A stretch of 59,574 bases of DNA, filler included, from Dimargaris cristalligena (lineage: Eukaryota), in NCBI GenBank assembly GCA_003614675.1. It is 2 parts of 2 records of this genome, joined end to end, with 100 filler letters (N's around TTAATTAATTAA, not from the genome) between each part and the next. Parts side by side here need not be neighbours in the genome. Positions count along the whole stretch, not along the records: positions 1 to 29,741 come from ML002474.1; 1 more part is not named here. One strand, given 5' to 3'. A program made the translations under genes and the position numbers. Shown here piece after piece: positions 8,997-57,245 of the stretch. The stretch's first letter is position 1, and every line of letters starts with the position of its first letter. The notes under the pieces are model-generated. The model saw only the letters and a list, made by a program, of their open reading frames with translations. It was not told the DNA's origin and ran no database searches.

Positions 8997-10808
8997 TTAA
9001 AGTTGGAATCCAGGCGGTGCCTCACCAACTATTTCTCCAGTTGTTAAATCTATAGGAGGCATAAACCCGAATTCAATAGGATCGGTTGAAAGTGTCCCGA
9101 GGTTTCTATACTCGGTGGCTTCCGTATTAAACGGATAGAATCGAACTGAGGCATCACCATCAGTATCCAGGTAAATGGGATACTCGTTGGAGATGAAAAG
9201 GGTACGGCAACGTTGGGGAATCTCATTCTCCGATACCCCCAATTGGTCGACGAGCCGCTCCTTAGTGGGAATGGTCCAATTTTCCGGGAGAAGTGAGCGT
9301 TTGATAAAACCAGCCTCGACAGCACAGTAGCCGAGAATATCGTGAGACTGGCTCTTAAATTCCGGATCCGAAAGATCTTCAACGAGTGCCTGTCTTTGCT
9401 GGACTGCCGCAACCAAAATGGCCGTATTAAGTAATACTGGGACCGGAATCCGCCTGGGGGGCATTTCAGGCATCGGTGGCATATTCGTACCTTGGGGCAT
9501 AGGTGGTGGGACAGGCATACCCGGGACCATTATAGGAAGGGGAGGACCGTCCCCTGCCATGGGGGCTAGCGGAGGCATATCCATGTCAAGTTCCGGTCCG
9601 AAATCCATATCCGCGTTGTCTTCCGCATCCAACAGCATATTGGGGTCGACAATATAATCCATCCCCACCACGTTTGGATCATTTCCTAAATTCGGGAGAT
9701 TGACCGCTCTACCAGTATCCATGACCTGTTGAAGGCTGTTAGTTTGTACCGCCAGATTACAAATCGATCGAGACAAGGTGCTTCTCAGATCACGTTTGAT
9801 AATATCCGGCACATAAAACCTCAACATTTTAGCCATATGATCAACATCAGACAGGGCAATAGTCCTGGGTATGCTGGCAAATAAAAGAGTAGCTAGAAAG
9901 TTGACGTAACTCGGCGGCACCCAACGTTCCAACTGGCGATACATGGCTTCGTTAAAAGTATCACTGTACACGTACTCGATAATGGGAGTCAAGCTTGCGG
10001 AATCCCCGGTTCGGATCTTGCCTAGAATGGGGAAAAACGCGTCGAACACTTCGACGGAGCCTTCGTTGGCCTTCAGAGCATGGGTGTTTTTGTTGAGCCA
10101 TTCCAACTCCGGCTTGAAAGTCTGGATAGCTGATGTAAGGATGGGAAGTGCGGCTCCGGGAGGGGGCTGCCGGTGGGCTCTTGGGACGGGATTGCCCAAC
10201 TTATCAAAACAAAGGGTGGAGAGGCTCAAATGAATGGATTGGATGACAGTCAATCGGACAAGGTTACCAATGAGTGGGCTAAAATCCAGGAACTTTTTAT
10301 CCGCCTCGCTGTCACTGATGCCTGGGCTGTAGTAGCTGAGAGGGTTAGCCAAAAAATGGGTTTCGGCCTAATTGAAATTGATTTTCGTGGTTTGAATGAT
10401 TGGACGGTGATATTGCAATAGTCACAAAGGTTAATATTAGGTGCATGGATTCTGCTGACCCGTATACAATACGCTGGAAGGGTCACAATAATAGTAAGGG
10501 TGATCTACGGCGGGATGATTAGGAGGTTCACTAGCAGAGGGTTCATGAGGCTTGAACAAATATACCGCTATAGAAGGTAAATGTGTACTTACTCCCTCAT
10601 TCAATCGCTTGGGTTTCCCCAAAATTCTGGCCCTCCATGCACGATTGACATTGGCGGTCGTTACCTGATCAGGCAGCGGGAGGTTGTTTACCACATAGTC
10701 GCCGAGTTCCTTGGGTAGTTTTGCCAAGGGATCGATGACAGGCTGGGCCGACACAGGCAGGCTAAGTTGAGCCAGTGGAGCGCTCAATAACATAATGAGG
10801 CTTCTCAT
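8997..10808 (-). CDS. Putative secreted protein with N-terminal F-box-like motif (~528 aa), candidate effector
   Basis: Exon 1 10808-10593: MRSLIMLLSAPLAQLSLPVSA|QP signal-like, then DPLAKLPKELGDYVVNNLPLPDQVTTANVNRAWRARI (F-box consensus), GTAAGT donor. Tentative micro-exon 10504-10473. Exon 3 10335-8997, preceded by a GCTAAC branch site and CAG. Pro/Met-rich segment in the C-terminal half. Confidence 0.75.
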
Positions 10809-10981: not shown

Positions 10982-12668
10982 CCCCTGCGCAACTCACCCA
11001 GGGTAAGGTTCAAATAGACCAGTCGTGCACCCTTACGCTACCGAACGAATTAAGCCAACTTCAAGTAATGGGGATACTGTCAAGGCACCACATGCAAGCC
11101 GGGGTTGGGTGAAACTGCTATTTTTCCTAAAAATGAGGACATTCACAATCGACCATGCTGTACTACAAGGAACACGCCTCATTAAGGCCAGGGTAGCAGA
11201 TTTGGACATTGGGTGTGGTCGTTACTCGTGGTGGTTAGGCGAACCAGAATTGGGGCTGCTTCTCATAGCAGCATTCCCTGGCCTACACATTTATAATGTT
11301 TCAGCCACAAGCTGTTTTAAGGTTGTCGCCAATGGCTTAGTCGGCTCTTTAGTAAAATATTAAGACAGGGTAGCCACCAAGAGTGTCCTAAAATAGTAAA
11401 CAGGGTTCGGGTACATGAGGAGTATATATTCCAAAGAAATGTTGGTGTTAAGTTTTACTTTGATAAACCAGCCCACTTTTAGAACCACCTAGTCATAGTC
11501 GGCATAGTGGTCCCCCGATACTTGGCCCAATTTGGTCGTTCACAATATTCCCACCTAGTTGTGTCATCCATTAAGGCTGAGGTGAGTCCCCATGTGATTA
11601 GGTATCCAATCTATCAAAGTTTAGCTACTAAGAAATAATAGAGGCCATTGGCCTTCCAATTCGCTTTGCGTTTTTGCCGATGACTGATACCAGGGGCCTC
11701 ACCTAGTTAATGGAAAAAATGGGCATGTTTTGGCCGGCCAGAGTTTGAGTGTATACTTTTAGAAGTTTTGTCAGCCATTTTACGTCAGGTTGCTGAGCCG
11801 ATGTCTGCTGGCTGAACAACAGCTTTGCCAATACTGGCAGTACAACGGCACCCCCCTGCATCCATATTAGCAGGGTGTAGAACCATAGAGTATAGTTGGT
11901 GCAACGAAGGTTTCACAAACGCAGCAAGTTTTCTATTGAAAAAAAAATGCGTGGCAAGTATATGTGTCTAACTAGATATTAGTTAGTGGAATAGGCAAAA
12001 TAATGGACTTCAAAAAACTAGGGTACCTAGACAGAATGAGGGGATAACACAGTCTACATTGTGATATATTTTACATTCTTTTGTGTCCCCATTGCCATCT
12101 TTCGATAGCACTCTTGGTAACATCCTTTTCCATAAATTCGCCTCTAGACTACATATCAGTCTACTATTACTTCACTGATAAGTATGGCTTATTCAGCGAG
12201 ACATCCATATATGTCCGCAGCCAGTTAGTGCTTCATACTTTGGTACCCATGATATTATTTAATCTACTCCTTGGATAATTTTACATCCTGGTTGGTAGAA
12301 TCTCCAGCCTAGTATCGCGACCTGCCTAGTGAAATTGTAGTGGAGGGACCTGGTGACCCAGTATAGGAAGTGGTGGTGATGTTATTGGACACAGAAGCTG
12401 TAATACCCGCCTGAGGGTTCATCTCCATCATTATATGATTTGCAGCATTAGAGAAAGTAAAGGCTGACTGCAAATTGGAAGGAACTATCAAGGAATATTA
12501 AGACATACTCCAGGGGTGCTACAGTTTTTTTATACATTATAAAGGTAACTACTAATAAAATAACTAATAACTACAAGTGATAATGAGTATAAGAAATAAT
12601 ATATAATGATAGGTAATATTTAACTGGGCTGATTATTTTGGTGATTAATTACCAGTTTCTTTTAACTA

Positions 12669-13255
12669 TGTTGGCCCTTCTAATCCACCTTAATCTGGAC
12701 ACTGGGCTGTCTGCCCTGATTAGGCCTTATAGCACCATGTTAACCTTCCCATGGCCACCCCCAGTACTATGGGATCACCCTATATCACATAACCCTTCCC
12801 CTTCCAGACTCCAGCTCTTTGCACTAATCACTCAGCATGCTGATCTGAGGACTCTTCTGGTTAACCTGAGAGTCTTCCAGATACTAGTAACCATCTGGTT
12901 AGCCTATTCTCACTATATACCTTAGTTACCTATATTCTTCCCTTGGGACCTCCCTCTGGAGTTGTCCCTGTGTATATATAATCAGGCCCCCTTGGGACTG
13001 GTTAGATACCTTAGCTTATTTCTTACCCCCTAGTTTACTCCAATAAACTTCATATATACTCACCCCCTCATACAGACTTGTAACTGTGCCCACTGCACAT
13101 CCCTTGCATAACTAATCACCTAGGCCTTTATTAGTTAGTACTGTTCCCCACACCTAATACTAGTAGCCCACTTGGCTGAGTCTAAAGCCCTACCTACCAT
13201 TAGAAGCCTATCCCTGGGACTCTTGATGGACTAAAAGTGGCAAACCTGGGTGACA
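12669..13255. mobile_element. Solo LTR (587 bp), copy 1, with 5-bp target-site duplication
   Basis: Ends TGTTG...TGACA (inferred ancestral TGTCG...CGACA). Flanked by AACTA (12664-12668) and AACCA (13256-13260). Homologous to 13313-13896 (inverted) and 29281-29572 (direct). No CpG seen. Confidence 0.75.
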
Positions 13256-13312
13256 AACCAGTTTAAATATTATATTGAAATAGTTTATTAATTTATTTTG
13301 GGGGGTTATGGA

Positions 13313-13896
13313 TATTGCATGGGTTAGCCACTCTTAGTCTGCCAAGAGCCCTGAGGATAGGCTTCTAATGGTAAGTAGGGTTTAGGTTTGGCCAAGTAGG
13401 CTACTAGCATCAGGTATAGGGTATGGGTACTAACTAATAAAGGCTAAGTATGATGATATATAAGGGGCATATAGTAGGCACACTTACTAGTCAGTACAAG
13501 GAAAGTAAGTATATATAGGGTTTATTGGGGTAAACTCAGGGGTAGGAATAAGCTAAGGAAACTAACTGGGCCCCATTGGGACTAGTTATATATATATGGA
13601 GATAACTCCAGAAGGAGGTCCCAAGGGGAGGATACTACTAAGACTAAGGTATAGATAAATAGGCCAACTGGATGGCCATTAGTATCTGGAAGACTCTGAT
13701 GGTAACTGGAAGAGTCTTTGGATTAGTACTCAAGTAATTAGTATAAAGGGGTAGAGTCCAGAAGGGGAAGGGTTATATGATATAGGATGATCCCATAGTA
13801 CTAGGGGTGACTATAGGAAGGTTAGTATGATGCTATAAGGCCTAATAGGGATGGATACTAAAGTATCTGGATTAAGGAGGATTAAATAGTCTAATA
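13313..13896. mobile_element. LTR copy 2 (584 bp), inverted relative to copy 1
   Basis: The reverse complement aligns along the length of copy 1 (e.g. ATTAGGCCTTATAGCA, AACCCTTCCCCTTC, CCATTAGAAGCCTATCC). Termini are mutated to TATTG/CTAATA. No matching TSD found. A G-run at 13300-13305 could be a PPT remnant. Confidence 0.75.
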
Positions 13897-14400
13897 AAGA
13901 CTTTACTCATTGTTTTCTTTAACTCCAAAGGGATTAGCCACCAGGAATTCACTCCCCAAGGCCAAATAGTCACTGGTCAGTACTGCCTGGGAGACTTGAC
14001 ATACCTACTGACAAGAATCAACTGTATACAGTTAGAGTATAAGGTGTAAGGATCCTGGGGTCTCCTCTCTGACAATGTACCCACATGTAAGTGCAAAATC
14101 ATCTGGGTATTTTTGGCTAAAAAGGGTGTGGTAATACTTGACCACCTGCTGTATTTACCTAATTTAGCCCCAGCTGACTTCTAGATGTTCCTAAAACCCA
14201 AGCTAGCCATGAAAGGGGAGCATTACAGCCCCATAAAGGACATCTAAGATACTTTAACTGATATCCTGAAGGGTATCCCAAAGGAGGGGTTTCCAAGCTA
14301 CTTTCACTCATTGTTTAGGTGATTCCAATAGTGTATTAATAAAAAAGGATCTTATATTGAATAAACAAAAAATAATATATAGATCTCAAACTGTTTTCAT
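13897..14400 (-). pseudogene. Possible hypermutated pseudogene of a secreted protein, ending at LTR copy 2
   Basis: AAAATG at 14400 lies about 170 bp downstream of the TATATAAA box. Frame reads MKTV*DLYIIFCLFNIRSFFINTLLESPKQ*VKVAWKPLLWDTLQDIS*SIL..., with a hydrophobic N-terminus and many stops in a CpG-free tract. Stop density is not lower than random. Confidence 0.3.
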
Positions 14401-14472
14401 TTTAGAGCACCAGTGACAGAACTTTTGGGTTAGACTATGTATATGCTATTAGTGAGCAAGTGAAGGGAGCGT

Positions 14473-14826
14473 TTTATTTAAAGACAGTGAAATGGAAATA
14501 GGAGAGCATGGTAGCATTTGGAACACTAGTAAACTGAGGAGCTATTCGTAAGATAATCGACATACCCTTTATATAGTCAGTACTATTCCATCTTGTACAG
14601 ACGTTAGTGCCTGGTGGACTTGTCCGGTCGAGATAAGGACCTCAGAGATCAAAGTCGTCATAGTGACGTTTACGACACTTCTTTATCTATTGGCAGGGGT
14701 TCTGGACAGTTGTCCCCCTGGTTATTTTGGTCCTGGGGCATGATATCGTTGGACCAGGGTGATGCCACGTTAGTGTTATCAGAACTGCGGCCGGTTATCG
14801 GGGTGGAAGTAATATATATATAAGCC
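14473..14826 (-). repeat. Diverged duplicated TATA-containing block, copy B
   Basis: GAACACTAGTAAACTGAGG (14521), ACCCTTTATATAGTC (14564) and GGGTGGAAGTAATATATATAT (14801), colinear with 6958-7325. Confidence 0.65.
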
Positions 14827-15267
14827 TTGAGTCAGGAATTTATTTAATAAAAATTTAATAGTAACAAGATTTATTGCTAAAACAGAGGCAGTGAATAATG
14901 CATTTTTTGTAAAACCCAGTCCAATCCAGCAGAGGTCGTTTTGAAACCTACACGAGAATATCCTTTGGAACTGGTAAGAATGGCAATCTTGTTATACCAA
15001 TAGTTGCACTACCTAGTGTTCTATTTTTACTATACACGAACATTGAATAATCTACTAATAATATTATCTACACTGACCACTTAAATTTTCCAATTATTAT
15101 TTTGAAGGAACACCCCATTGGCGGTTCTATACTATAACACGTTATGGTTCTGACTAGACCATGTCTACCGAAAGAATCCACCAGCCTTGCCAATGCTGTT
15201 TGACTGCTTCGGGTTAAGATGTGTTCAAAATTACTGATTTCTATTTCTTTTTTGTCCATTTTTGCCC

Positions 15268-19119: not shown

Positions 19120-21134
19120 TTAGTCCTCATCCCAGTTGCTGTTGTTCTTGGGGGGTTTAGGGCCACCAGCGGGTTTGCTCATAATAATTTGATCCACCTT
19201 GAGAATGGTCAAGGCAGCGGAGGTCGCGTAGCGCAAGGCCCACTGCTTAACGACTAAGACATCAAAGATGTTGTTCTGGACGGCATCAAGGACCCCCGAC
19301 GACGACGCCGACACCTCACCCACAGTACCGGCCAAGGTAGTAGCGGCCACCGTACTGGTAGCGGCTTCCACATCAACGCCAAAGACGCCGCGGTCCGATT
19401 TGTAGTGGGCCGAGTACAGCTTGGCGATGGTTTCGGAGCTATCGAGACCGGCGTTTTCGGCCAAGGTGCGGGGAATGACCTCAAGGGCTTCGGCGTACTT
19501 CTTGATGGCGTGTTGGTTCAGACCGGGGGTCTTTTCACCGTAGTTGGCCAAACGCTTGGACAGGGCCATTTCAGTGGCTCCGGCGCCGGCCAACAGGCGG
19601 GTGTCCTTGGTCAGGGCCTTGATGACGTTGACGCCATCATCGATGGCACGCTCCAGGTCGTCCAAGTGGTTCTGGGTGGCTCCACGAATCACAATGGTGA
19701 CAGTCTTGGTCGCCTCGGCCTCCTGACGGAAGACCGTGACCCGGTCCCCGCCAATTTCCACGGACTCCACCACATCACAGTAACCCATTTCCTCAGGGGT
19801 AGGGGCACCCAAACGGGCCAGAGCGGTAGCACCGGTAACGCGGCACAGACGGCGGAGATCAAATTTGGAGAGCACCTTGAGGGCCATGATGCCGTAGCGG
19901 TTGAGGTAGTGCATGACCAAGTCACCGATACCCGAGCCGGTCACAATCACCTTGACGCCAGCATCCGCCAGTTCCTTGACCTGAGTCTCAATCAGGACCT
20001 CTTCGCCCTTGGAGAAGTCAAGCATCTCCTGGGCGCTCGAGAGCAGCACGGTGCCCTTGGTTTCAGTCTGCGAGATATCCAAGGAACAGGTGAAGATGGC
20101 TACCTTGGCCTGGTTGGCGTTACGGACGATGCCTTCGGGCTGGCGAGCGAACACCATACCCCGCAGGACGCGGCTGTCATAGATGCCGCCACCCATGATC
20201 TTAACCACGCGCACACCGTCGACGCTGAACTGGGCGGGGTTCTTGGGCATGATCTGACCCACGGCCTCGGTGACCAGGTCGGCGAGGAGGTCTTCGTAGC
20301 CGTATTGCTTCGACGCAATGGCGGTACGGACGGCCTTGCGGAGCTCGGCGGGGTCGGCGAGACTGTTGACCTTATCGACCACCAGCTCCTCGAGAATTTC
20401 CTGGGCTTTGGCGGCCGCTAATTCGTAGCCCTGGATAATTTCACTGGGGTGCAGACCCATGCGCAGCAGCATCTCGGCCTTTTGCAATAACTCACCGGCG
20501 AAAATCACCACCAGGTTGGTACCGTCACCGATTTCCTGTTCCTGCTGCTGGCTGCTCATGACCAACAGGCGGGCGGCGGGGTGCACGACCTCCAACTCCC
20601 GGATAATGGTGGCGGCGTCATTGGTGACGAAAAGCTTTTCCAGATGGTTAATCACCATCTTATTGCGACCGTTGGGGCCCAGGGAGGTCCGGGTCATTTC
20701 AGACATTTCCTTAATGGCGCCGATATTCCGAACCACCGCTTCATCGGTTCCTTGAAGATGCTAGGGGGTGGGGAAAATATAAATAGTGTGGGGTGTATCG
20801 AGTACAGTGCCGAGTCGCAAAGGACCGGTGTGGAGAACAGTATATAGTTGTATAACCAGAGTTGTTAGAAAATTAGGTTCGTCACCGAGGATGAAGCAGG
20901 ACTGGACTCGGGCCCGACAAAGTATTCCAAGAATTGCTAGGGTTTCTGTCGGACTCTCGGGAATCAACCCAATAGGTGGTTCGGCCCTAGTATATATATA
21001 GCAACCTGGGAGTAAATGCAGGGTTACGATACGAACCACCGAATGATCAACTCATCTACCGAGAAATGTAGGCGTACCTTGTACCCATCTTTGAAGAGCT
21101 GGGGCATCATGGGTTTGGGAATCCGGAGAGCCAT
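19120..21134 (-). CDS. CCT8: T-complex protein 1 subunit theta (chaperonin CCT8)
   Basis: Exons 21134-21078 (MALRIPKPMMPQLFKDGYK) and 20760-19120. Motifs RTSLGPNGRNKMVINHLEKLFVTNDAATI, GDGTN, SKFDLRRLC and C-terminal VDQIIMSKPAGGPK...WDED. Confidence 0.97.
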
Positions 21135-28716: not shown

Positions 28717-29280
28717 GATTTGCCAATGTTTTACTTTCCGGCATTTTGTAAAAACTACACTTATGCTTACTCGGTTTTGGTTTAGGTATTGTTTTTTTTT
28801 ACACAATGTGGCAACCTAAAGGTTCTATTGGTTTCAAAATAATACCATGTCAGGAAATAAAGCGATCTGTTTATCAGCTTATATTACGCTAAGAATTTAA
28901 TGGGTGGGTTTTAGATACTGGTTTTATTACATACCAATGGGAATCGTTTCACTCTATAGGGGGTAAACAATGGAAGTATCTAGGTCAGGAATTTATTATA
29001 GTAGCAATAATTTGAATATGGAATAGTGTTGGTATTAGATATCCCTAGTGAACTCTATACAGGTAAAATTCATGATAACTGTATAAGGTTTTAAATGGAA
29101 TATGTTTGGTAAACTAGGCAGGTGACTCAATTTTAACCAGTGATTTTTGCCTTACCCAGTGGGTTTTTAGTGATATAGGGCAGCTGAACCTCCTCATATA
29201 TAAGCATTATAGAAGAGATACAAAATAAACATATAATGGATAGAGATATTCCCTGTAATATTTCAATATAATAAGAATAA

Positions 29281-29572
29281 TATTGGCCCTCCCAATCCAA
29301 CCTAAATCTGGACTTAATGATTGTCCACCCTTATTAGGCCTTATAGTACTATATTAACCCCCCATAGTCACACCTGGTGCTATGGGCTTGTCAGTTATCA
29401 TATAACCCTTCCCCTTCTGACCCCAATGCTCTGCACAAAACACTTAACCTACTGATCCAACGACTCTCCTAGTTCCCATAAGAGTCTTCCTAATATGAAG
29501 TTATCTGGTCAGCCTATACCATAGTTTAGTAGTATTTCCCCTTGGGACCTCCCTCTGGAGCTATCCCTATGT
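29281..29572. mobile_element. Partial third copy of the same LTR family (same orientation as copy 1)
   Basis: Starts TATTGGCCCT. Shares ATTAGGCCTTATAG, ATAACCCTTCCCCTTC, AGAGTCTTCC and CCCTTGGGACCTCCCTCTGGAG with 12669-12970. Confidence 0.75.
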
Positions 29573-29741
29573 GGTGAACTTACTACATTTTTTACCTACT
29601 TTTATTTTTTATCTATTTTTCGCACTTATCAGAAGTACACCCCTGATGAGTGAATGAGCCCCTGCCCCTACCCCTGACGAGTATGATCATTTTTCCTTCA
29701 TTTTCATTATTATATTGTTTTTTCTATTATTATATTTTATA

Positions 29742-29841
29742 NNNNNNNNNNNNNNNNNNNNNNNNNNNNNNNNNNNNNNNNNNNNTTAATTAATTAANNN
29801 NNNNNNNNNNNNNNNNNNNNNNNNNNNNNNNNNNNNNNNNN
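29742..29841. other. Assembly gap: 44 N + TTAATTAATTAA + 44 N (100 bp)
   Basis: Directly visible. The 12-mer gives stops in all six frames, typical of an artificial contig-joining spacer. Confidence 0.95.
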
Positions 29842-31540
29842 CACCTTTCCCTTTTATTATCTATCTTTTCAAATAAAGTTCAGTTTTCAAGGATTTAAGT
29901 TTAGTTCTTTACAAGGACTTCAACCAGAAGTCAAGTTTTTTACATTTTACTAGTTACCTTTACTTTACTTTCAGCCATTTGCTAGCCCAGCTCCGTGGCT
30001 CGTCTAATTCCCAACTCCAATAATGGGAGTATAGGCTCCATCAATCTGGAGTTGTTCCCACTGTACCCCAGCACCAGTTCCAAGCACAGTTCCAACCCTA
30101 TCCATATAGTGGAAGGGCCGATGCCCAAATTCTCCATGTTTCACCTAGGTACCTCAAGCCCTTCAAACCCAATGTCTGGTGGCCCATCCAATCCCGGCAA
30201 TGACATGGGGCCCGACCCCAACCTTAACCCCGGGAAGGGGGTTCCTCAAACCACTGGCCCAACAATTGTCAGGATTTAGTCAGATTAGGAGGGCTGACAG
30301 TTAGTAAGGCTTGTAACAGCCTATTACCCATTGGGTGGTGTTTTTTGTTGAAGTGACCAGACAACTCCTTCATTACATGGGCAGTGGGTTTCTTTGAATA
30401 GTTGTAATATGCCATATCAAGGAAGTTACAATCATCCTCAAATAAAAAAAAATGGGGTGGCACTTCATGTAGCAGGCCATCCTGAGCAGCAAGAATAAGA
30501 ATCACTATAATCTTTAAGTGTGGTTTCAAAATAGTTTGTGGGGATGTAAGCCCCAATTGCATATGGTTTCAATATTAAATAGTGGTATAGATTATATGAA
30601 TGGGGTTCCAGCAGCTTTGGGGATGCTGCCAGGCTCACTTCCTTAATGGCAGAAGTCAGGTGTTAAACAGTTGGGAGGTAGTTCTAGATGATAGGCAAGG
30701 TGTAGTGGCATCTGGAGGTTGGCACTTATCCCCAAACTATGGGCAGCCAGTCCTAATCATCAGAGGGCAGAATATACTGTGATATACAATGGTGGTATCA
30801 TTCCCATCATTTTCCCACTAAAATTACTACCTATACTGTGGCATATACTAAGAATACCAAAAATATTATTTATTTTTTATATTCACAGTTTGCATTAAAA
30901 AGTCCACCCTTCTTCCTTGCATTTAAAAGTCTGACCTATTTCTCAGTGGATTCTCTTCCATTCCATCTTATTACATCACTAATTATTTTCTACATCCTTT
31001 TCTTTGTATCCAGAGGCCCTAAGGCCCACAGAATGGTTACATAAGTAACCAGTGAATTCCCACTCATTTTGGGGAGAAGAGTCATCACCACTTGTTTTAT
31101 TTTGAAGTCATCTTTTCTATTCCTTGAACTCGACCATAACTTTCTAGTTGATTATTTATTATTAACACCACCACTTTTATTATCTTTCAATAAACTTTTG
31201 CACCCCTCATTTATATCCCCGTTCTCCATCTGTTTTACTAACCATTTGCCCCTCCGAAATCCCACCATGACGACACCCAACTCTGTCCCTGTCTCTTCCA
31301 ACTCTGTGAACCTCCCATCATTTGCCACCAGGGAGCTGGCCACCGCGACTTTAGGCCACACTGATAAGGAGGCTGCTGCCTCCTTGCAAATTCCAAAGAC
31401 TGTTAGCCATAGGCCGGACCTCCCAGGTAGTACAAAGGCATGGGGTATACAGATACTTTCACAGGCATACCACAGTATTGCTGGCAGTATATACATATTT
31501 CACATTCAACGAAAAGGCACAATGACTATCCAACTAGAAT
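29842..31540. other. CpG-depleted degenerate repeat/transposon-like remnant
   Basis: No CpG seen from about 30233 to 31130. Short broken ORFs with no recognisable domain, adjacent to the gap and LTR copy 3. Confidence 0.3.
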
Positions 31541-37464: not shown

Positions 37465-39213
37465 ATGTCGCCACCGCCTACCAGAGCAGTCCCTTCGATC
37501 CGCGCCCGGCGGCCAGGCCGAGTAGTGGCTTCTCGATTTAAGTTGGCCAAAAGTACCAAGGCCAAGACCAAAGCCCAAGAAGCCGATACCCTTGCTGAAG
37601 CGGCCCCCCATTCGACGACATCGACCACCACCACCACCACCACCACCATAGCCACCGCCACCACTACGGCCAGTCGAAAACCCACTCTGACCGTGGCCGG
37701 TGCGGCGAGTACATCCACCACCGCCACTACCTCCTCCCAGTCCACCACTGGTAATCGCCCCCTGGCTGGCCCAACGGGCCCTCCCCGCCGGGTCTCGAGC
37801 CGACTTGCATCTCCTTCACTCCCCGTACGTGAAACGGGTCCCTCGCGTCGCCCCATGTCCCAAAGGGGCAAAACCCCAGTTCCTCCTCCCCGTTCCCTCC
37901 ACCGGAAAGTAAGCGCCTCCTCCCTCCGGGGCCGCAAGGTACCCGGTTCTTCCCAAATCATGAGTGGCCGGGGGACTCGGACGGCAACGGCTTCACCCAC
38001 TAATGGCGCACCTAAAAAGCCCCGCATGTCCGACACGGACGACGGTGAATCGGTCCCCCCCAACCCCACTGGCACCAGCACCAGCACTAATACTAATACT
38101 CAAGCTAGCACAACCACCACAGCCACCACCGTTGCTCCTTCCACTAAAAGGGTAACTCGTGCCCGCCAGCCCCCTCCTGAGTCGGCGGCCGGAAACACCA
38201 GGTCCATTGCCAGTCCTATACCTGAAGAGCCTACCCCGCGACGCTTGACTCGACAGTCGTTGCGAGCGTCTACTTTACTAACTCCAACGGGGAAGGTAGT
38301 CGCTCCGACTCGACAGATACGCGGCAACGACACCCCTAGGACGACTACCCCTACTCCTACTGCTACTTCTACCCCCACACCCTCTAAATTACGGCGAACC
38401 AAAAACCGAACCACTCTTAAACCCGGCTCTACGACTAATTCAACTACCGCGTCCATATCAACAACTCCACTGGCTAAGCCAACCCTTTCACCTTCTTCTA
38501 TTCACAACCAACCTTCGCCTAATACCAACAGCTTCCTAAGCACATCGTTTCCACCATCTACCAGCGGACTGGCAAGCGGACTTGGCGGTGAACCGGGCGA
38601 TGAATTAATGGCATTGACTACCCGGTGGTTACAATGGGTGTTCCTCAATCGCAAATCCAACCGGCAATTCTCCCACCGGCGTGACGTCGCTGAAACTCAG
38701 TTAATGAACGCCTGGCAATCGCTGCACGACCTGCAAACCACCATCTTCCACACCGAACGAATGATTCAGCAAGCGGAACAGGGTCAACGGTGGTCGAACG
38801 GCTCGACTGACCCTGTTACCACCACGTCCTCCTCCACGGTTCCTTCATTCACTACCGTCCACCGTTCCACGTTGGAAACCATGCTTCATACCTGTGCCGA
38901 TCTCCAGCCCCAACTCACCCGACTCTCGGAGGCCCTCTTGCACAGTACTAACATCCTGCCCACCACAGACATTGCGGCGGTCAGTCAGCACGAATTTAAT
39001 GAACGCGTTAACCAAAGTTCTACCCTCTTGGTGGGCCTGGAATCCGCCAATGCTTCGAATTTAAAGGCCAGTGTGGATTTAGCGGAGTCCGTTGCGAGGG
39101 TTGCCCAGGTGTTAGAAAAGGAACTTCAGGAAATACAGGAGGTGATTGCCTTGACCCAGAGCATCGATTCTCTGGAAGCGGCCTGTCAGAGCCTAGATCT
39201 AAGCCAAGGCTGA
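37465..39213 (+). CDS. HAUS8/Aug8/QWRF-like microtubule-associated protein (putative augmin subunit)
   Basis: N-terminal GRVVASRFK motif, long basic Thr/Ser/Pro-rich disordered region, C-terminal helical domain with TRWLQWVFLN (cf. QWRF-family RLLQWRF). Confidence 0.55.
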   Translation: MSPPPTRAVPSIRARRPGRVVASRFKLAKSTKAKTKAQEADTLAEAAPHSTTSTTTTTTTTIATATTTASRKPTLTVAGAASTSTTATTSSQSTTGNRPLAGPTGPPRRVSSRLASPSLPVRETGPSRRPMSQRGKTPVPPPRSLHRKVSASSLRGRKVPGSSQIMSGRGTRTATASPTNGAPKKPRMSDTDDGESVPPNPTGTSTSTNTNTQASTTTTATTVAPSTKRVTRARQPPPESAAGNTRSIASPIPEEPTPRRLTRQSLRASTLLTPTGKVVAPTRQIRGNDTPRTTTPTPTATSTPTPSKLRRTKNRTTLKPGSTTNSTTASISTTPLAKPTLSPSSIHNQPSPNTNSFLSTSFPPSTSGLASGLGGEPGDELMALTTRWLQWVFLNRKSNRQFSHRRDVAETQLMNAWQSLHDLQTTIFHTERMIQQAEQGQRWSNGSTDPVTTTSSSTVPSFTTVHRSTLETMLHTCADLQPQLTRLSEALLHSTNILPTTDIAAVSQHEFNERVNQSSTLLVGLESANASNLKASVDLAESVARVAQVLEKELQEIQEVIALTQSIDSLEAACQSLDLSQG

Positions 39214-55904: not shown

Positions 55905-57245
55905 TTATAAAGGACGGTGTTGGTGGTGACCCACGGCCACGGGAATGGTGCGCCGCACCGCGAACCCGCGCTCGTTGGGGACAAAACTATCCACTTCGGC
56001 CAGTAAATCCTGCACCACTACCGGGTCTTGGATATCGATTAGATAGCGCGGGACCGTGGGTCCCTCATCCAAGGAGGTGATGATGGAGGATGCTACGGAG
56101 CTGGTGTTGGAATAACGACTTAACTGGGACACCACACTCTGAGTTTCGGATAGAGTATCCGTGGCCATCGCAGTGGAGGGCCCGGAATCATAATAGTCCT
56201 GGCGGCGGGACGGCGTATCAAAGTGCCGGAGTGACTGGGTGGAGAGACGCCGGGGGCGTTTGTTGAGTCGGTCCGCGGCGTAGTCGGTGTAGACGGCGGA
56301 CAACCGGTGGGGATTCGAACCCGAGTGCGAATGCGGGGGTGGGTGAGAAAAGGAGGCCGAGGAGTACCCGCCATGGGGTGGGGGTCGGTAGGGAGTAGTG
56401 GTGGTGGTCCCCGATGCAGAGGAAGAAGGGGAATAGGCCTGTACGAGTTCCGCCACGGACAAGCGGTGTTGCAAGGCGGGGCCGGACCGACCCCCGGCCC
56501 GGTCGGGACTGCGTAAATTATACCCCGACCGTCGGTATGAAGGTGTGCGAAACTCACCGGTAATGTCATAGGCACTCTGGGTACTCCCACTTCGGTTCCG
56601 ACCAGCGGAGTTCCAGGCGTGCGGGACCCGGGAAGTGGCCAGAGCGGGTGATTGAGTATCCCCTGGGCCGTGGGTGGGTGGAGTGCCTGCCGGCAAGGTT
56701 GCTGACGGGGGAGGGGCCTGGGTGGGACTGGGGCCATTATTATTGGTACCTGGAGCAGGAGTGGGTTGCGGCGGGGTACCCAAAGCATACCGACCACGCG
56801 GACTGGCCGTGGCGCCAGTGGGGTCGGGTGACAAGGACAGCGGGTAAAGTTCAGTAGACCCGTCAAAACTGGTGCGGATGGTCGTCCGTGGCGCCGGCCG
56901 GAGGGCAATGGGAGATGGGGCACCCCTTAATGCAGACCGGGGCGATGCCAGACCGACCGGGAGCTGGGAGCCGGGGGACTCTTGGTGGCGGACCAGCACA
57001 AATGGACCCACGGCTTTACGACCCCCGGCCAAATGACACTCGAGAATCCAGGCGGAGCGGTAAAGGACACGGTTACTCTCCTGGAGCTTAATAGTGGCCG
57101 GATCATTGCGGTTGTTGCTGAAGAGGTAGACGGTGGACCGGGTCGGAGTGTCGACTTTGGCGCCCCCTTCGGATAACCAAAGGTCAATGTGGGTGCGGGG
57201 CACGCTCTTCGCGAACCAGGCCGAGCAGGAATGGAAAAGGCGCAT
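55905..57245 (-). CDS. Hypothetical Ser/Pro/Thr-rich protein (446 aa)
   Basis: Long ATG-initiated ORF with GC-rich codon usage. Possibly folded ~85-aa N-terminus and short C-terminal motif. No family recognised. Confidence 0.65.
   Translation of the reverse strand: MRLFHSCSAWFAKSVPRTHIDLWLSEGGAKVDTPTRSTVYLFSNNRNDPATIKLQESNRVLYRSAWILECHLAGGRKAVGPFVLVRHQESPGSQLPVGLASPRSALRGAPSPIALRPAPRTTIRTSFDGSTELYPLSLSPDPTGATASPRGRYALGTPPQPTPAPGTNNNGPSPTQAPPPSATLPAGTPPTHGPGDTQSPALATSRVPHAWNSAGRNRSGSTQSAYDITGEFRTPSYRRSGYNLRSPDRAGGRSGPALQHRLSVAELVQAYSPSSSASGTTTTTPYRPPPHGGYSSASFSHPPPHSHSGSNPHRLSAVYTDYAADRLNKRPRRLSTQSLRHFDTPSRRQDYYDSGPSTAMATDTLSETQSVVSQLSRYSNTSSVASSIITSLDEGPTVPRYLIDIQDPVVVQDLLAEVDSFVPNERGFAVRRTIPVAVGHHQHRPL

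Follow-up and report, generated by a model that had tools for sequence, protein, structure and literature searches.

How does a stretch of DNA come to lose every one of its CpG dinucleotides when the genes around it keep theirs? The question is raised by positions 12410-14469 of the window, as we call the whole 59,574-nucleotide stretch of Dimargaris cristalligena DNA analysed here (assembly GCA_003614675.1; parts of two records, joined by 100 filler letters). A first, sequence-only reading had counted no CpG by eye over some 2060 bp and attributed this to C-to-T hypermutation of CpG and CpA in repeats, akin to RIP (repeat-induced point mutation), within a fungus that seemed to stand outside Dikarya. 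Is a mutagenic genome defence at work here, or have methylated repeats simply decayed? Situated between genes of a Dimargaris (Dimargaritales, Kickxellomycotina), the block is a nest of defunct transposons. It holds two inverted long terminal repeats (LTRs), here called units A and B, both probably solo and both from a very abundant family, which lie next to or have inserted into the relic of a mariner element; a third, partial copy, unit C, is found further along the window. The CpGs were lost through C-to-T change after the copies had diverged, and the LTR copies show in addition a secondary CpA-to-TpA bias that is weaker than the CpG loss and statistically real. The explanation we favour over classical RIP is repeat-targeted cytosine methylation, with CG far above CA, followed by deamination, and we would put its chances a little above even.

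The recount agrees with the eye: not one CpG occurs between those at 12408 and 14470, which bound the block. Base composition predicts 81.9 of them in this run of 2062 bp, and at the window's usual ratio of observed to expected CpG (o/e) a run of this length has a probability of about 6e-31. It is the longest CpG-free run in the window. Only two more exceed 500 bp, one of 900 bp (30231-31131) and one of 516 bp (28945-29461), which belong to a second CpG-poor block near copy C; a run of 316 bp (29678-29994) spans the N filler at 29742-29841, and all remaining ones measure 181 bp or less. The long open reading frames (ORFs) of the window have a CpG o/e of 0.92 and the other non-ORF DNA one of 0.75. 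Depletion is confined to repeats and their margins with the genes normal, a distribution expected when 5-methylcytosine (5mC) decays by deamination. The block itself lies between an ORF that ends at 10352 and one that starts at 15262, and outward from it CpG returns in a gradient, with 7 of an expected 17 in 12000-12409 and 21 of 29 in 14470-15260. Within the block CC/GG and CT/AG are in excess, which looks intrinsic to it. How far does the loss reach beyond the repeats? The sequence-only reading had put this at about 570 bp of flanking sequence; CpG-free flank that is single-copy measures about 254 bp on the left and 114 bp on the right, and most of what that reading took for right flank is the mariner relic at 13897-14355. 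In public contigs aligned to 12300-14600, the stretch 12300-12607 has the depth of one contig in three runs, as single-copy DNA should. In the run of another isolate (X3), the boundary CpG at 12408 reads TpG, and the differences from the window listed for that run (12408, 12429 with CA/TA, 13289, 14032, 14033 and 14452) are transitions in six of six cases.

Were CpGs ever there to be lost? The alignment of units A and B has 593 columns, of which 438 are identical, 107 differ by a transition, 34 by a transversion and 14 contain gaps (about 76% identity). In 17 columns TG in one copy faces CA in the other, and another 17 are conserved as TG/TG or CA/CA. A reciprocal TG/CA column is expected where a single ancestral CpG decayed independently in two copies, on one strand or the other, and such independent outcomes in each copy, CpG-to-TpG here and CpG-to-CpA there, are what decay of 5mC leaves behind. 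Moreover, at two of the 17 reciprocal sites other family copies in public contigs have retained CG. From the reciprocal columns and the retained CG it follows that the ancestral unit had a roughly normal CpG density and that the loss took place in this genome. The sequence-only reading had seen the beginnings of this in a 60-bp alignment of 12765-12824 with 13741-13800 in reverse complement, where we find the same 9 mismatches, 8 of them transitions; the reciprocal CA/TG columns and the CA/TA and TG/TA columns that it described recur in the full A/B alignment, and its claim that CpG was lost by C-to-T change in repeats is borne out. The dominance of transitions is another matter: it is a property of those 60 bp, and dissolves over the full pair into 107 transitions against 34 transversions. 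On the genomic plus strand, 13 of the 17 reciprocal CpG sites read TG in both inverted copies (binomial p=0.049), a hint that deamination is strand-biased for reasons that lie in the locus, such as replication or transcription, and not in the orientation of the element.

Does CpG decay account for everything? With the reciprocal sites set aside, A and B mismatch at 33 of 150 sites where a pyrimidine (Y) precedes A, at 14 of 102 YpC sites, 10 of 115 YpT sites and none of 17 YpG sites; the excess at YpA over YpC and YpT together (33/150 vs 24/217) has a Fisher p of 0.005. Three-copy parsimony sharpens the picture. Over the 288 columns shared by A, B and C, taken with the 3′ neighbour identical in all and on an unrooted tree, C-to-T change is assigned to 12 of 51 CpA copy-sites, 3 of 84 CpC and 2 of 66 CpT (12/51 vs 5/150, Fisher p=5e-5), that is, CpA is favoured about 7-fold over CpC and CpT on this unrooted tree, and the rate of T-to-C change is flat across contexts (0.06-0.08). 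A null simulation that combines complete CpG decay with context-free change attained the observed p in none of 200 runs and gave a median rate ratio of 1.07. The excess of CpA/TpA change beyond CpG decay, which the sequence-only reading had claimed, thus stands. Ten columns hold both CA and TG and so derive from CpG; the third copy reads TA in five of them, which reveals a two-step path from CG to TG or CA and on to TA. All three copies are TA-rich and CA-poor. The changes were also said to have struck the ends of the element, and this is true of B, which has TA at both termini, and not of A, which keeps TG and CA; overall, TA replaces TG or CA at three of the five observable termini of A, B and C. 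At the 3′ end, A and two consensus ends of other family copies read CA, and B reads TA. The target-site duplication around A (AACTA/AACCA) is present as described, its single mismatch being a TA/CA difference. Editing of complementary DNA by a deaminase was considered and rejected, since neither strand is free of CA/TA changes (17 sense, 15 antisense).

The window was also compared with the family at large. Among the best 40 of 785 variable places, 25 lie in the LTR part; 17 of these are transitions, and 11 are C-to-T changes in the window copy, whose 3′ neighbour is A in 2, C in 4 and T in 5 cases. Judged by a family majority that is near fixation, these window-private changes do not favour CpA. 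Position 12739 is TA in about 99.7% of the family's depth, which makes A the odd copy and not B, and at 13051 the family reads mostly T in two of three runs.

How is the nest built? Unit A has what is expected of a solo LTR, TG...CA termini and a putative target-site duplication within the usual 4-6 bp (Table 1). Unit B has no recognisable duplication. The window holds no gag-pol internal region for the family and no tRNA gene as insertion target. The two units lie 57 bp apart, and one contig at single-copy-level depth bridges 13211-13614 without differences to the window. The mariner relic is recognisable by its relatives: read through with X at its five stops it finds 2725 of them (best E 1.9e-28), and the full-length ones carry HTH_48, Transposase_1 and DDE_3, the relic aligning to residues of about 196-348. 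Its own top Pfam match, searched with the stop-free pieces, stays below the cut-off (18.1 vs 24 bits), and a 44-residue stop-free piece had no match in a word-index protein search. The relic is moderately repeated, with a depth mostly from a few-fold to about 15-fold over single-copy (about 3-fold in the lowest bins of run X3). Its best relatives are at most 49% identical, and one of its stops stands opposite arginine and another opposite glutamine, glutamate or lysine; as a hint to the polarity of change, these residues are suggestive only.

Table 1. Features of the CpG-free nest and of the second CpG-poor block (positions in the window; CpG as observed versus expected)
Feature	Position	Strand	Remarks
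Left flank, single-copy, AT-rich	12410-12663		About 254 bp; 0 CpG vs 5.5
Putative target-site duplication of LTR A, left copy (AACTA)	12664-12668	+	4/5 match to 13256-13260
LTR-like unit A	12669-13255	+	587 bp; TG...CA termini; 0 CpG vs 28.2; TA o/e 1.41
Putative target-site duplication of LTR A, right copy (AACCA)	13256-13260	+	Pairs with 12664-12668
AT-rich spacer between inverted units A and B	13261-13312		52 bp
LTR-like unit B	13313-13896	-	584 bp; inverted to A; 75.6% identity; 0 CpG vs 20.4; TA o/e 1.72
Tc1/mariner (Mos1-like) transposase relic, C-terminal half	13897-14355	+	5 in-frame stops; 0 CpG vs 19.4; TA o/e 1.01
Right flank	14356-14469		114 bp; 0 CpG vs 2.6, alone not significant
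LTR-like unit C, third, partial copy	29281-29572	+	1 CpG vs 12.4; 5′ terminus TA; near N filler
Second CpG-poor block, around copy C and the N filler (29742-29841)	28945-31131		CpG-free runs of 516 and 900 bp

That A and B belong to a very large family is evident from the public data. In three runs of one organism (organism A), between 1937 and 3827 contigs are at least 80% alike to the LTR, and at 13255/13256 many members of the family stop and run on into differing sequence, the loose ends there agreeing to only 0.42; many copies with common ends and unlike flanks, here thousands of matching contigs, are what solo LTRs should show. Across the family copies of run X1 the variable places comprise 456 transitions and 135 transversions. 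A run labelled as a different organism (X6) contains 18 short contigs of the family, two of which are identical to the window over 151 bases; they could come from a related species, a co-culture or carry-over. Metagenomes were also searched for LTR-like loci with an 18-letter degenerate motif; it returned 87 loci, none of them LTR-like by blastn at E 1e-3, and these were discarded as chance matches. Could the two units instead be the arms of a single foldback or DIRS-type inverted-repeat element (PMC3783388)? In one multi-copy contig an end of A type is linked with an inverted end of B type across a different spacer of 36 letters, and the tail-to-tail arrangement of such ends may recur elsewhere. 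We regard a DIRS-like or foldback element as unlikely, since members of the family border on differing DNA at their inner (CA) ends.

What process, then, removed the CpGs? In the explanation that we favour, repeats would be kept cytosine-methylated, chiefly at CG and more weakly at CA, and 5mC would deaminate to thymine over evolutionary time. Methylation would spill a few hundred bases into single-copy flanks. The cytosines have decayed with a steep hierarchy of contexts: CpG decay is essentially complete, CpA is changed at roughly a quarter to a third of its sites per LTR copy, and CpC and CpT at about 3%. Of CpG nothing remains in A, B and the mariner relic, and a single one in copy C. Transitions outnumber transversions by only 107 to 34 and the family has thousands of copies, which is more in keeping with slow decay than with an efficient block on duplication. 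The methylation itself, its enzymes and its gradual tempo are what we infer from the observed composition, reciprocal decay, context bias and repeat status. The sequence-only reading had offered non-CG methylation as its alternative, and this accounts for the data no less well than RIP does.

Several observations weigh against gradual decay of methylated repeats. At CA/TA columns the T is found 29 times in B and 4 times in A, compared with 13 and 11 in other contexts (Fisher p=0.006), and parsimony places nine CpA-to-TpA changes on the B branch and none on the A branch, the transversions of the three-copy region being about equal in number (B 4, A 6). Of two neighbours subject to one gradual process, a closer likeness would be expected, unless B is of greater age or stems from a lineage that had decayed already. 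The TA excess is absent from the mariner relic (o/e 1.01) and from 29842-31050 (0.92), though CpG has been lost from both. Finally, CpG loss has been at least about 100 times faster than change at CpC and CpT, which is steep for spontaneous deamination alone. How did B come by its load of CpA changes? A burst in B or its lineage, an older B under a CpA-biased clock, or a subfamily ancestor that had already decayed would each fit. That B is simply older than A is compatible with the counts, as a 7-fold CpA bias predicts an excess of about 6 in other contexts, where 13 against 11 were observed.

The strongest rival is a true RIP-like defence, that is, deamination of C in bursts, directed by homology or repetition (for example by a RID-type methyltransferase), with CpG as first and CpA as second target and leakage into flanks. 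Classical RIP has a strong preference for CpA-to-TpA, needs sequence duplication or homology and acts before meiosis. The asymmetry just described speaks for it, being specific to both copy and context: B holds the T at 29 of 33 CA/TA columns and at only 13 of 24 elsewhere, and the nine-to-none split between the B and A branches comes without a matching difference in transversions. The three TA termini, the CA/TA difference within the target-site duplication, the completeness of CpG loss and the CpG-free single-copy flank that adjoins the repeats would all be accommodated as well. However, RIP produces C:G to T:A transitions almost exclusively, and here their ratio to transversions is only 3.1 overall and about 1 outside pyrimidine-purine dinucleotides. 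The main target is CpG and not CpA, and only 2 of the 11 listed window-private C-to-T changes are at CpA. The family grew to thousands of copies. Linked duplicates are the classic target of RIP, yet A has been nearly spared at CpA, at a distance of 57 bp from B; TpA is not in excess in the mariner relic, and the direction of the changes comes from an unrooted tree. The hypermutation and the repeat-induced process proposed by the sequence-only reading go beyond what these data show. The literature divides in the same way: targeting of CpG plus CpA is described for RIP in Aspergillus (PMC4352252) and RIP-index signals are reported for Entomophthorales (Zoophthora radicans) with caveats stated by the authors themselves (PMC11105155), whereas a kingdom-wide screen has RIP-like signatures in ascomycetes only (PMC12543289). 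On balance, we consider a RIP-like defence possible and rather unlikely. It is slightly less probable still that Dimargaritales own a mutator that turns C to T in repeated or heterochromatic DNA in a directed way, at CpG first and at CpA second, and leaks into the flanks.

The RIP indices that had been named as a check are of little help here. The composite index is above zero in 67 of 234 segments of 500 bp, so unspecific that it was rejected as evidence, and its maximum is a false positive in a low-complexity coding stretch. This top value (1.97) falls at 38001-38500, in the Thr/Pro/Ser-rich part of an ORF (37465-39213) that matches no Pfam family and has a normal CpG o/e in that segment.

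Might only the CpG decay be real? The CA/TA excess would then reflect differences, in either direction, between the subfamily masters of A and B. The three-copy tree is unrooted, and what is counted on the B branch could be TA-to-CA change in the ancestor of A and C. The family majority at 12739 and, in two of three runs, at 13051 agrees with this, as does the mariner relic with its ordinary TpA content; the finding that only 2 of the 29 T-in-B sites (13460 and 13472) are among the 40 of 785 places listed is weak evidence in the same direction. But an excess specific to YpA needs explaining whatever its direction (p=5e-5, and the null simulation), and for a TpA-specific T-to-C change no mechanism is known, and it would make dead repeats richer in GC. 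The CA at the 3′ end of A and of two consensus ends, where B has TA, and the TA-rich, CA-poor composition common to A, B and C also argue against it, and we give this reading a somewhat smaller chance than either kind of directed mutagenesis. As for elements that arrived CpG-poor, by their own composition or by horizontal transfer, and did not change in this genome, transposon families can have a composition of their own and the CC/GG and CT/AG excess looks intrinsic, but the 17 reciprocal columns, two of them with CG in other copies, tell of CpGs present and independently lost and exclude a CpG-poor origin, and three unrelated sequence types (LTR, mariner relic and single-copy flank) are CpG-free together, which makes this highly improbable.

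How does methylation-driven decay in Dimargaris compare with known systems? The transposons of Tuber melanosporum have a predominant CpG signature with CpA as a secondary one, and those of rusts and Microbotryum a CpG-only signature linked to a Masc2-type DNMT1 (PMC4352252). Our locus resembles these DNMT1/Masc2 fungi in that C-to-T change is concentrated in transposons, CpG predominates and genes have normal CpG, and it shares the secondary CpA target with Tuber. It is unlike them in lineage, Dimargaritales, and in that CpG loss is total here and partial there. With RIP in Neurospora and other Pezizomycotina it has in common C-to-T change in repeats, a CpA-to-TpA part, TpA-rich LTRs, an unequal load among copies and effects on flanks. 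It differs in its main target CpG, its ratio of about 3 transitions per transversion, its thousands of copies, the near sparing of the adjacent inverted unit A at CpA and its place outside the ascomycetes. The proposed cause has its counterpart in the 5mC of Linderina pennispora (Kickxellales) and Phycomyces blakesleeanus, which is almost confined to repeats and, in Phycomyces, far higher at CG than at CHG and CHH (PMC11258239); theirs are methylome measurements, and ours is a mutational footprint alone. Entomophthorales belong to the same broad Zoopagomycota neighbourhood and pose the same question of RIP outside Dikarya. The claim for them (PMC11105155) rests on composite indices, whereas the evidence from Dimargaris is alignment-based and drawn from three copies only. 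In the literature on methylation, repeat-induced change and CpG, as covered by main texts, we found no report of such decay for Dimargaris or Kickxellomycotina.

The genes of the window are intron-poor and eukaryotic and encode a P-type ATPase, a PPR protein, CCT8, a PXA-RGS-PX sorting nexin, PAT1 and a CoA transferase. The CCT8 ORF (19120-20736, minus strand) is 96% identical to that of Dimargaris cristalligena, 82% to Tieghemiomyces parasiticus and 78% to Dimargaris xerosporica and Dispira simplex; the organism is indeed a non-Dikarya fungus, as had been supposed, and not a member of Pezizomycotina. The second CpG-poor block is interrupted by N stretches at 29742-29785 and 29798-29841. Beyond them, 29842-31050 has 6 CpG where 51.6 are expected and is strand-asymmetric (CA o/e 1.38, TG 0.95), with no TpA excess; none of the 12 stop-free segments of 29842-31151 has a Pfam match. 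An ORF of 446 residues at 55905-57245 (minus strand) matches at its N-terminus the Pfam family TERB2, a telomere-associated meiotic protein (E 1.3e-6; 28.9 bits vs a cut-off of 27), which is an unexpected family for a fungus.

What does the nest add? Whether RIP-like mutagenesis exists outside Dikarya is disputed, with index signals in Entomophthorales on one side (PMC11105155) and an ascomycete-only result on the other (PMC12543289). This locus contributes alignment-based evidence from Kickxellomycotina, where transposons combine a total loss of CpG with a significant CpA-to-TpA component, and it demonstrates that, in this genome, RIP indices built on dinucleotides mislead when used alone. 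Public data exist for the very abundant LTR family, and a rooted analysis across the genome, combined with a methylome, could settle the RIP question. The footprint is of a known kind, in a lineage where it had not been described before. Should a directed mutator prove true, it would be a RIP-like defence outside Dikarya, and such systems would either predate Dikarya or have arisen twice.

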